Sequence record: OR845258
DNA: 47,511 nucleotides
Source: Escherichia phage ECO95 1-6-1
Reading direction: 5' to 3' (one strand)
In this document: positions 20,997-21,518 of the stretch, piece by piece
Position numbering within the stretch: the stretch's first letter is position 1
Layout of the letters: each line of letters opens with the position of its first letter
Program-made: the position numbers and the translations under genes
The notes under the pieces: model-generated
What the model was told of the DNA's origin: nothing
What the model saw: the letters and a program-made list of their open reading frames with translations, nothing else
The model's database searches: none

Positions 20997-21518
20997 ATGG
21001 GTTTCTGGAATCTTTCTGACGGTAAAGCTGTTGAATCTAAATCTGAATTTGAGCTGGGTGGTGGTTTCGAAGTAATTCCTGATGGCAGCCGTGTTCTTGC
21101 TGCCGTTGAAGAGTGTAAAGACGATCAGTGGGAAGGTGAGCGATTCTTCAATCTTAAGTGGAGAATCCTTGATGGTGAGTATAAAAATCGCATCATCTTC
21201 CAGAAGCTGAAAGTATTTAGCTCAAAAGAAAAGCAGCGCGACAATGCTATCACTATGCTTGCAGCAATTGACGCAAACGCTGGTGGCAAGCTGATGGCGT
21301 CAGGGAAAGAGCCGACTGATTTTGCTATTGCTAGTGCGCTTGCTAATCGCCCGATGATCCTTCTTCTGCGCGTTTGGGAATCTGAGGATAAGCAAAAAAC
21401 TGGTAACTATGTGGCTGGTGTTTTCAGTCGTCAACAAACAAAATCAGCGCCTGCTCCTAAGCAATCAGCGCCATCTAACGAGCCTCCGATGGACTTTGAC
21501 TCTGACGTGCCGTTTTAA
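20997..21518 (+). CDS. DUF669-type SSB-like protein with host-SSB-like C-terminal tail
   Basis: ATG at M21 of the track ORF with GAGAGGA RBS; LKWRILDGEYKNRIIFQKL resembles the DUF669 core; C-terminus SAPSNEPPMDFDSDVPF nearly matches the E. coli SSB C-terminal tail (PSNEPPMDFDDDIPF). Confidence 0.7.
   Translation: MGFWNLSDGKAVESKSEFELGGGFEVIPDGSRVLAAVEECKDDQWEGERFFNLKWRILDGEYKNRIIFQKLKVFSSKEKQRDNAITMLAAIDANAGGKLMASGKEPTDFAIASALANRPMILLLRVWESEDKQKTGNYVAGVFSRQQTKSAPAPKQSAPSNEPPMDFDSDVPF

Follow-up and report, generated by a model that had tools for sequence, protein, structure and literature searches.

Among phage proteins that coat single-stranded DNA (ssDNA), the closest described system is that of the Escherichia coli phage HK620, in which the protein encoded next to Sak4 is a tetrameric ssDNA-binding protein (SSB; Hutinet et al. 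2018, PMC5928155). An ssb gene adjoins about 80% of sak4 genes, and the C-terminal NDYPPF of the HK620 SSB resembles DDDIPF; without its last six residues, Sak4 binding to SSB-coated ssDNA is lost, and annealing and recombineering are stimulated far less (PMC5928155). Phage SSBs with SSB-type tails and a partner-recruiting role are an already established kind. The gene considered here encodes such a protein, referred to below as the phage SSB, in Escherichia phage ECO95 1-6-1 (sequence record OR845258, 47,511 nucleotides (nt), called the window; Table 1). It joins a DUF669-type body to a tail that is a near-copy of the C-terminus of E. coli SSB. What it adds is modest: an extended copy of the host tail that is specific to one phage clade, a DNA patch of ~50 nt that derives from an E. 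coli-type ssb, and a tail that evolves more freely than that of the host.

The HK620 SSB (HkaK) and the phage SSB of the window are both phage-specific, non-classical proteins encoded beside a sak4 gene, both have an acidic tail ending in P-F, and both phages have an E. coli host; the requirement for the tail has been shown in HK620. The tip of HK620 is only loosely SSB-like, while the window tail is a 15/17 copy of the host sequence with identity at the DNA level in relatives. In addition, a Gp157 gene lies between Sak4 and SSB in the window, unlike in HK620. No significant similarity between the two SSBs was found by BLASTP or hhalign, the two Sak4 proteins align only over Walker-A and in a few short, scattered stretches (best E=0.017), and the HK620 SSB has no DUF669 score in current Pfam. 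Transfer of function from HK620 by homology was dropped, as neither SSB nor Sak4 is detectably similar; an analogy at the level of family and architecture was kept.

Two further groups carry comparable tails. Classical SSBs of temperate enterobacterial phages and prophages (HK75, mEp235, epsilon34, g341c) have the same SNEPPMDFD(D/S)DIPF tail, and their occasional tip variants DSDIPF and DDDVPF resemble variants found in the phage clade. The bodies of these classical proteins are ordinary PF00436 domains, homologues of host SSB, so their tails were inherited with the gene; unlike in the phage clade, codon identity of these tails to chromosomal ssb is at chance level. Kong and Richardson reportedly engineered, in 1998, chimeras of T7 gp2.5 with the C-terminus of E. 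coli SSB. The concept is the same, but those were laboratory constructs on a T7-type (DUF2815-like) body, whereas the present combination is natural and has a DUF669 body.

The translated open reading frame (ORF) ends in ...QQTKSAPAPKQSAPSNEPPMDFDSDVPF directly before the stop codon, and its last 17 residues (157-173) are SAPSNEPPMDFDSDVPF. The C-terminus of E. coli K-12 SSB (RefSeq genome, L001) is ...SAPAAPSNEPPMDFDDDIPF (...SRPQQSAPAAPSNEPPMDFDDDIPF), and 15 of the 17 residues are identical. BLASTP of the phage SSB against E. coli SSB aligns residues 138-173 to 148-178 (22/36 identities, E=6e-10) and gives no alignment outside this C-terminal segment. When E. coli SSB was compared with the whole window by tblastn, the tail of this ORF was the single site found (E=7e-9); no second SSB was found in the window by this search, and the annotation of NC_054637 (94% identical) lists none either. 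Likewise, phmmer of the phage SSB against all PDB sequences finds SSB C-termini only (1eqq, E=1.7e-4; 7f2n) and no match to the body. The original prediction, made from the letters of the window, had described the tail as closely matching the end of E. coli SSB, and the alignment it proposed as a check confirms that the likeness is real and far beyond chance or low complexity. The stop codon directly follows F173, leaving a free C-terminal Phe, and P172, D170, D168, and D166 are present. The tip of the window protein, DSDVPF, has four of the six residues of the D-D-D-[IL]-P-F hexapeptide, while the exact DDDIPF occurs in close relatives. Identity as an SSB is consistent with PHROG 9002, “single strand DNA binding protein” (E=1.7e-69).

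The likeness extends to the DNA. In 5424 of 5426 E. coli genomes, the 3' end of chromosomal ssb1 matches the patch of the window (with K-12-type alleles at 85.7%, E=2e-5), and 9 of 13 synonymous-capable codons are shared with K-12 ssb, compared with 4.8 expected from phage codon usage (P=0.015). Four relatives with bodies of 96-97% nucleotide identity to the window are much closer to K-12. Over the last 48 nt of ssb, L214 has 47 identical positions, 14/14 codons and the same TGA stop (P=5.5e-7); L213 has 46 and 13/14 (P=3e-5); L007 has 46 and 13/15 (P=1.2e-4); and L212 has 45 and 12/15 (P=1e-3), with 40 for the window itself. In thousands of E. coli genomes, ssb1 is 98.1% identical (53/54) to the last 54 nt of L214 (E=8e-17 in a search of 28 gigabases). 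The shared tract is ~53 nt long with sharp edges, and no ssb similarity was found outside it, either in the upstream linker and body or in the downstream terminator region. As a control, prophage PF00436 SSBs with an identical peptide were compared with K-12: of 14-15 codons they have 2-9 in common with it (typically 4), as expected by chance. In an invariant 39-nt block L007, L213, and L214 match K-12 at 38 positions, compared with 30-37 for 78 other bacterial alleles and 28-35 for 22 prophage alleles. In these relatives the tail was taken up as DNA from an E. coli-type ssb and is not convergent; the evidence is decisive, because synonymous codons, the stop codon, and a sharply bounded tract of ~53 nt are all shared with ssb.

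The donor can be named only in general terms. A test by best-matching bacterial allele was uninformative: 79 alleles for the same peptide include 68 distinct DNAs, and unrelated prophage tails reach 35-37/39 to some bacterial allele. The codon comparison was kept only against the pre-specified E. coli K-12 reference. Since the bacterial sample did not include chromosomal ssb from Salmonella, Shigella, or Klebsiella pneumoniae, “E. coli-type” means Escherichia or a close relative outside the sample. No donor was found for the DSDVPF allele of the window, as DSDVPF occurs in 0/80 of the bacterial genomic matches listed, and prophage DSDIPF alleles have codons that differ from those of the window. 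Taken alone, the codons of the window allele provide weak evidence of capture.

The distribution of the tail was counted over 120 listed homologues, grouped by body identity to the window protein. At 94-99% identity there are 59 clusters, every one of 173 residues; NEPPMDF is found in 41, EPP[MV]D[FY] in 49, a PF end in all 59, and a GF end in none. The corresponding counts are 0, 7, 9, and 0 for the 13 clusters at 70-85%; 0, 0, 1, and 1 for the three at 56-61%; and 0, 0, 25, and 13 for the 45 at 40-53%. A PF end is present in 94/120 and a GF end in 14/120, while the full host motif was not seen below ~60% body identity. The full 13-residue motif is limited to this phage clade; a generic [DE]-x-[IV]-[PG]-F tip is family-wide in DUF669-like proteins. 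The original prediction had stated that a tail common to DUF669 proteins regardless of host would count against it; comparison of homologues in related phages shows that the generic tip is indeed that common, but the extended host copy is confined to near relatives. Other phage SSBs end in ...PEDLPY (Enterobacter ST22), ...TPPLDY (Pantoea LIET2), NDYPPF (HK620), ...GGGLGF (Vibrio pYD21-A), ...NDFDDDVGF (Pseudoalteromonas H103), and ...HDLDDEIPF (Brucella Pr).

Among bacterial SSBs, NEPPMDFDDDIPF shows essentially no variation in Vibrio, Aeromonas, Photobacterium, or any of the Enterobacterales sampled, and 78/80 genomic matches listed have DDDIPF. This motif alone is no pointer to E. coli because it is invariant from Vibrio to Enterobacterales, and to that extent the suggestion that the match indicates an E. 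coli-like host did not stand. The residues APS before NEPP are more specific; they are present in the phage and, among the bacterial matches listed, only in Escherichia, Enterobacter, Klebsiella, Citrobacter, and close allies. Together with the DNA-level identity, they do point to such a host. Tails of this type are also common on phage SSBs: tblastn with the tail peptide, queried jointly with the 15-residue extension described below, matched 694 phage records, mostly classical SSBs, and a scan of IMG/VR found about 60 loci with the tail on classical PF00436 SSBs.

Two observations on the tails of other phage SSBs may be added. Short PF00436-type phage SSBs (131-132 residues; L062:2279-2674, L081:2279-2674, L035:2207-2605) have tails ...NEPPMDFDYDVPF or ...NEPPMDFDDDIPF, and tip variants with a non-acidic residue at the position of Ser169 of the window protein are found on these classical SSBs as well. 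ORF53 of Brucella phage Pr (L085:1501-2106) is a DUF669-like SSB, 37% identical to the window protein, with the end ...SNFSHDLDDEIPF. A PDB search with the Pr tail found no match; presumably this tail is like those of alphaproteobacterial SSBs, and it would then be a second instance of a tail that tracks its host.

Within the phage clade, the body and the tail have evolved very differently. Among 60 near-identical proteins (95-99%, all 173 residues), differences are mostly in the last 32 residues: 17/141 columns vary in the body (mean entropy 0.02 bit), compared with 23/32 in the linker and tail (0.37-0.52 bit, the linker mean being 0.37 bit). F167, D170, P172, and F173 are invariant in the 60 close homologues, while neighbouring positions vary, and the tip alleles include DSDVPF, DDDIPF, SDDVPF, DDDVPF, EEDVPF, DNDIPF, and NEDIPF. 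For eight genes with DNA available, pS (synonymous differences per synonymous site) is 0.20, pN (the nonsynonymous equivalent) 0.003, and pN/pS 0.02 in body residues 1-141, compared with 0.53, 0.09, and 0.17 in tail residues 157-173. Strong purifying selection acts on the body. For the tail, positive selection is unsupported, as pN/pS is below 1; weaker constraint and 2.6-fold higher synonymous divergence are seen instead. Several discrete tail alleles occur on nearly identical bodies (window 21420-21515 compared with L004-L010 and L212-L216), a pattern that would fit recombinational turnover of the patch. Both a single capture followed by decay and repeated conversion are compatible with the data.

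The body scores 26.5 bits against Pfam DUF669 (PF05037; gathering cutoff 21, E=7.7e-6, residues 23-141), as the original prediction had proposed. The relatives L003 and pYD21-A score 20.7 and 20.2 bits, slightly under the cutoff, and the phage clade is therefore peripheral to the family. DUF669 proteins have been inferred to be highly diverged SSBs of the oligonucleotide/oligosaccharide-binding (OB) fold with SSB-like acidic tails (Kazlauskas et al. 2016, PMC4889955), a description also given in PMC5928155, and the acidic tail of that description is present here as ...MDFDSDVPF. No Pfam match was found in the phage SSB to PF00436 (bacterial SSB) or to DUF2815 (T7 gp2.5-type SSB), and phmmer, profile, and BLAST searches align the tail alone with bacterial SSB. 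By sequence, no solved structure in the PDB matches the body, whether the single sequence or a 42-member profile is used. Enc34 ORF6 and lactococcal p2 ORF34 were considered as solved DUF669 structures and dropped: according to the Enc34 paper ORF6 is a DUF2815 (T7 type) protein, and no PDB sequence matches the body.

An AlphaFold2 model built from an alignment of family members has a mean pLDDT (predicted local distance difference test) of 71, with about 80-88 in core residues 30-143 and less than 50 in residues 149-169, which are predicted to be disordered. The order of strands and helix, beta1-beta2-beta3-alpha-beta4-beta5, is OB-like. The sole strong Foldseek match of the model in the PDB is PrgE (8s4s; E=1.9e-5, probability 1.0, template modelling score 0.43-0.55), with weaker matches to SSB, RPA, and PriB (E about 0.02-0.1) and to the OB folds of AB5 toxins; the T7-type SSB structures 1JE5 and 5ODL are outside the top 50. 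PrgE, from plasmid pCF10 (8s4s/8s4t), is a DNA-binding protein with an atypical OB fold and a proposed phage origin, and it binds both ssDNA and double-stranded DNA in the context of conjugation (PMC11137577). It has about 14-18% identity to the phage SSB and is not found by sequence profile; the terms “acidic” and “C-terminal tail” do not occur in the text of the PrgE paper (PMC11137577). The body is thus predicted to be a strongly diverged OB fold. The claim that it is unrelated to host SSB holds for the sequence but, judging from the model, probably not for the architecture. W55, F68, and W127 are invariant in 42 family members and are candidate base-stacking residues.

Compared with E. coli and other enterobacterial SSBs (PF00436; 1eqq), then, the phage SSB shares the C-terminal 16-17 residues, in relatives also the DNA encoding them, and the general arrangement of an OB fold (predicted in the phage protein), a disordered linker, and an acidic tip. 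No similarity in the DNA-binding domain was found by BLASTP, tblastn, phmmer, or profile. The linker of E. coli SSB is long and Gly/Gln-rich, while that of the phage SSB is short and basic (K149, K155), and the host protein ends in I-P-F with an invariant DDDIPF where the window has DSDVPF.

In bacteria, the SSB C-terminal docking peptide (SSB-Ct), with its terminal P-F, free carboxylate, and preceding acidic residues, docks Pol III chi, PriA, RecQ, ExoI, RecO, DnaG, and other proteins (reviews cited in PMC5928155 and PMC3632105). F167, D170, P172, and F173-COOH, the positions that are invariant in the phage clade, are those that we take to be most important in solved SSB-Ct complexes. The explanation we favour, and consider rather probable, is a composite one: a phage SSB whose OB-fold body carries a captured host docking tail that recruits both host factors and Sak4. 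The DUF669-type body (~23-141) would coat the ssDNA of phage replication and recombination, and the last ~17 residues would be a working copy of the SSB-Ct of Enterobacteriaceae. The patch of ~50 nt would have been acquired from a chromosomal E. coli-type ssb and perhaps, in some lineages, re-converted by ssb, so that the protein would be a naturally formed chimera in which an OB-fold body from the phage carries a docking peptide from the host. On ssDNA coated by the phage SSB, its exposed ...D-[IV]-P-F-COOH tip may recruit readers of SSB-Ct such as host Pol III chi and PriA (replisome and restart), factors that a phage without its own replicative polymerase would have to use. Neither the non-structural ORFs of the window nor the annotated NC_054637 (94% identical) yielded a replicative polymerase of family A, B, or C. 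By analogy with HK620, the tip may also load the Sak4 annealase encoded nearby, and Sak4 is the probable phage partner of the tail. That the protein recruits or competes for host SSB partners, as the original prediction proposed, is a plausible hypothesis; ssDNA binding, docking, and the identity of partners are likewise inferred.

Several points weigh against this composite explanation. Firstly, the window allele (DSDVPF, TAA stop) is just 40/48 identical to K-12 (P=0.015), so that capture is demonstrated in relatives and we infer it for the window copy from them. Secondly, the DUF669-like SSBs of enterobacterial phages ST22 and LIET2, and also the HK620 SSB, do not have the host copy, and pYD21-A ends in GGGLGF although Vibrio SSB bears the same motif as E. 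coli; the host copy is therefore not required for this class of protein. Thirdly, the tail is ~20-fold more variable than the body, including the acidic positions 168 and 169, while from Vibrio to E. coli the tail of the host protein does not vary. A tail so much more variable than the frozen host tail is not under full multi-partner constraint, and the drifting acidic positions suggest that it answers to fewer partners than the host tail does. Lastly, the analogy with HK620 is weak because neither the SSB nor Sak4 is detectably similar and the HK620 SSB is not assigned to DUF669 in Pfam; moreover, in HK620 the resident host SSB is no substitute for the cognate SSB (PMC5928155).

A 15-residue extension, or cap, present in some of these proteins is also relevant. 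In clusters P0063, P0066, and P0068 (L003:4543-4585), ...EPPMDFDDDIPF is followed by 15 residues, AP[VF]GLQYANHAIYVL, and then by the gene's own stop and terminator. A clearly homologous extension is found on classical PF00436 SSBs as APVTLPFPRHAIHAI, AYIGLQYPSHAIHSI, or APIGLPFPRHAIYSL, in 11 of about 60 IMG/VR loci and in the isolated phages HK75, mEp235, mEpX2, epsilon34, g341c, and JK004. It also occurs, as APIGLQYARHAIHAI or APIGLPYGRNFIHCI, on Vequintavirinae proteins of ~410 residues without a Pfam domain (Acinetobacter ABPH49, Klebsiella Seu621). The loci with the extension are L003, L024-L026, L029, L038, L040, L045, L053, L079, and L082, along with L209:1048-1587, L210:340-1581, and L211:367-1587; the pattern is roughly A-P-x-[GT]-L-[PQ]-[FY]-x-x-H-A-I-[HY]-x-[IL], and none of the 80 bacterial genomic matches listed has it. 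A cap after ...DDDIPF would bury the terminal carboxylate used by SSB-Ct pockets, another point against a working docking tip in the proteins concerned. With or without the cap, the tail is found on at least three non-homologous bodies (DUF669-like, PF00436, and the ~410-residue protein), a distribution that favours modular movement of the tail. A tentative extension of the composite explanation, possible but doubtful, is that linker and tip form a mobile docking cassette of enterobacterial phages, in which a patch of ~50 nt from the essential host ssb has been copied repeatedly onto non-homologous phage bodies and re-converted, with the cap as a switch. Re-conversion by host ssb would take place during infection, perhaps via the phage Sak4 annealase, and phage SSBs would in this way stay matched to the SSB interactome of the local host, while the cap (AP-x-G/T-L-x-F/Y-x-x-H-A-I-x-x-I/L) would mask or redirect the tip.

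The rival explanation that survives best is that the tail serves phage partners only (Sak4, the PrimPol-helicase, or the SF2 helicase) and that its likeness to the host is a by-product of its DNA origin. The need for the HK620 tail in Sak4 loading (PMC5928155), the Sak4 gene nearby in the window, the tolerance of changes never seen in the host tail, and the existence of capped variants are all consistent with it. However, the invariant residues are presumably those read by host SSB-Ct pockets; no replicative polymerase was found for the phage, and several relatives have alleles identical to K-12. We consider a tail for phage partners alone unlikely. That the protein is a decoy, in line with the competition suggested by the original prediction, and abundant enough to titrate SSB-interacting proteins (nucleases, restart or repair factors) away from host forks or serving to shield phage ssDNA ends, is quite improbable: the tip peptide is near that of the host and Gp157, a Gam-like protein for end protection, is encoded in the same module, but a decoy would be expected to have maximal affinity, yet the acidic positions drift, and the same tail is found on hundreds of ordinary phage and prophage SSBs. 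An acidic tip that folds onto the DNA-binding groove and tunes ssDNA affinity and cooperativity would suit an acidic tail after a basic, disordered linker, and T7-type and E. coli SSBs are documented to regulate themselves in this way (work cited in PMC5686142 and PMC5928155). Intramolecular regulation leaves the exact P-F-COOH tip and the host-identical DNA patch unexplained, however, and is compatible with the composite explanation rather than an alternative to it; as a full account it is very improbable. Convergence or ancient vertical inheritance, with no capture of DNA, is the least probable of all and is already refuted for the clade: despite the generic D-D-x-[IV]-[PG]-F tip throughout the DUF669-like family, the chance that DUF669 is a remote SSB homologue, and the weak codon evidence of the window allele, it does not account for the codons and stop of L214, the sharp edges of the tract, the chance-level codons of prophage SSBs with the same peptide, or the absence of the full motif from the more distant relatives listed.

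No new class of system is opened by this locus. It does provide a clean case, at the level of sequence, of a virus gaining a host short linear docking motif by DNA capture and not by convergence, with the motif placed on a DNA-binding body whose sequence is unrelated to that of the host protein, and it supports the assignment of a peripheral DUF669 clade as SSBs. The composite explanation also suggests how a siphovirus without a polymerase could link its ssDNA both to the replisome of the host and to the Sak4 recombinase that it encodes. Sak4 and the phage SSB could be a recombineering pair in which the SSB already fits the network of E. coli SSB partners.

Table 1. The phage SSB gene, its parts, and neighbouring features; coordinates are those of the window.
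Feature	Coordinates	Strand	Basis
Prim-Pol / PriCT_2 / DUF3987 primase-helicase, sole polymerase-like gene found	16561..18894	+	Domains; annotated in NC_054637
Sak4-like RecA-core ATPase / single-strand annealing protein (AAA_24)	19689..20531	+	Pfam E=1.9e-27; PHROG 124 E=6e-46
Siphovirus Gp157 / Mu Gam-like, between Sak4 and SSB	20485..20979	+	Pfam PF05565 E=3e-38
Shine-Dalgarno-like GAGAGGA, 8 nt 5' of ATG 20997	20983..20989	+	Read from sequence
Phage SSB coding sequence, 173 residues and TAA stop	20997..21518	+	PHROG 9002; homologues
DUF669 domain, predicted divergent OB-fold core, residues 23-141	21063..21419	+	Pfam, AlphaFold2, Foldseek
Linker, residues 142-156 (VFSRQQTKSAPAPKQ), predicted disordered, varies among close relatives	21420..21464	+	pLDDT, entropy
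Host-SSB-like tail, residues 157-173	21465..21515	+	Alignment to E. coli SSB, 60 homologues
49-nt DNA patch that aligns (85.7%) with the 3' end of E. coli chromosomal ssb	21466..21514	+	Nucleotide search
GC-rich hairpin AAAGCCCC-GCTAA-GGGGCTTT, then T-rich run	21540..21561	+	Terminator-like, tentative
DUF3268 zinc finger	21564..21953	+	Same-strand block
SF2 (ResIII/Helicase_C) DNA helicase, 621 residues, 3' in module	21950..23815	+	Pfam, PHROG

The source phage is a siphovirus of the genus Buchananvirus. Its SSB region is 100% identical to that of Salmonella phage S.Kent 1-2-1 and 92-94% identical to those of phages gmqsjt-1, Sa179lw, Sf11, and YX3973, and the hosts from which the closest phages were obtained are Salmonella, E. 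coli, Shigella, and Klebsiella, in agreement with the enterobacterial host that had been proposed. The Sak4 and SSB genes are on the same strand with Gp157 alone in between. Sak4-SSB synteny is shared with five other phages, and the order PrimPol-Sak4-(Gp157)-SSB-helicase/exonuclease is found again, together with SSB bodies of 31-48% identity, in phages of Vibrio, Pseudoalteromonas, Pantoea, Enterobacter, and Brucella. An equivalent of the hairpin is found 3' of the SSB gene in all relatives; a simple terminator scan did not call it, and it is tentatively a terminator closing the Sak4-Gp157-SSB block.

Some minor features of this region vary among relatives. The longest Gp157 ORF starts with a GTG at 20485 and has 47 nt (20485-20531) in common with the end of sak4; the Gp157 call in relatives, 159 residues, equals the ATG at 20500, and the two genes overlap with either start and may be translationally coupled. 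The slot between SSB and helicase contains the DUF3268 zinc finger in the window and in gmqsjt-1-like phages, a different ORF of 72 residues in Sa179lw (L002:24778-24993), and no gene in L003 (4586-4633). In L003, a related metagenomic phage, the SF2 helicase (L003:4634-7525) is 963 residues long with Hom_end_hint/LAGLIDADG matches, which indicates an intein; the 621-residue helicase of the window does not have these matches. Elsewhere in the window there are a Rha/KilAC antirepressor-type ORF (35966-36631) and a ParB-HTH/KorB-like ORF (40625-41434), and a related genome also encodes a cro-like repressor and Lar-like and anti-restriction genes, regulatory and anti-defence functions that are unconnected to the SSB tail.

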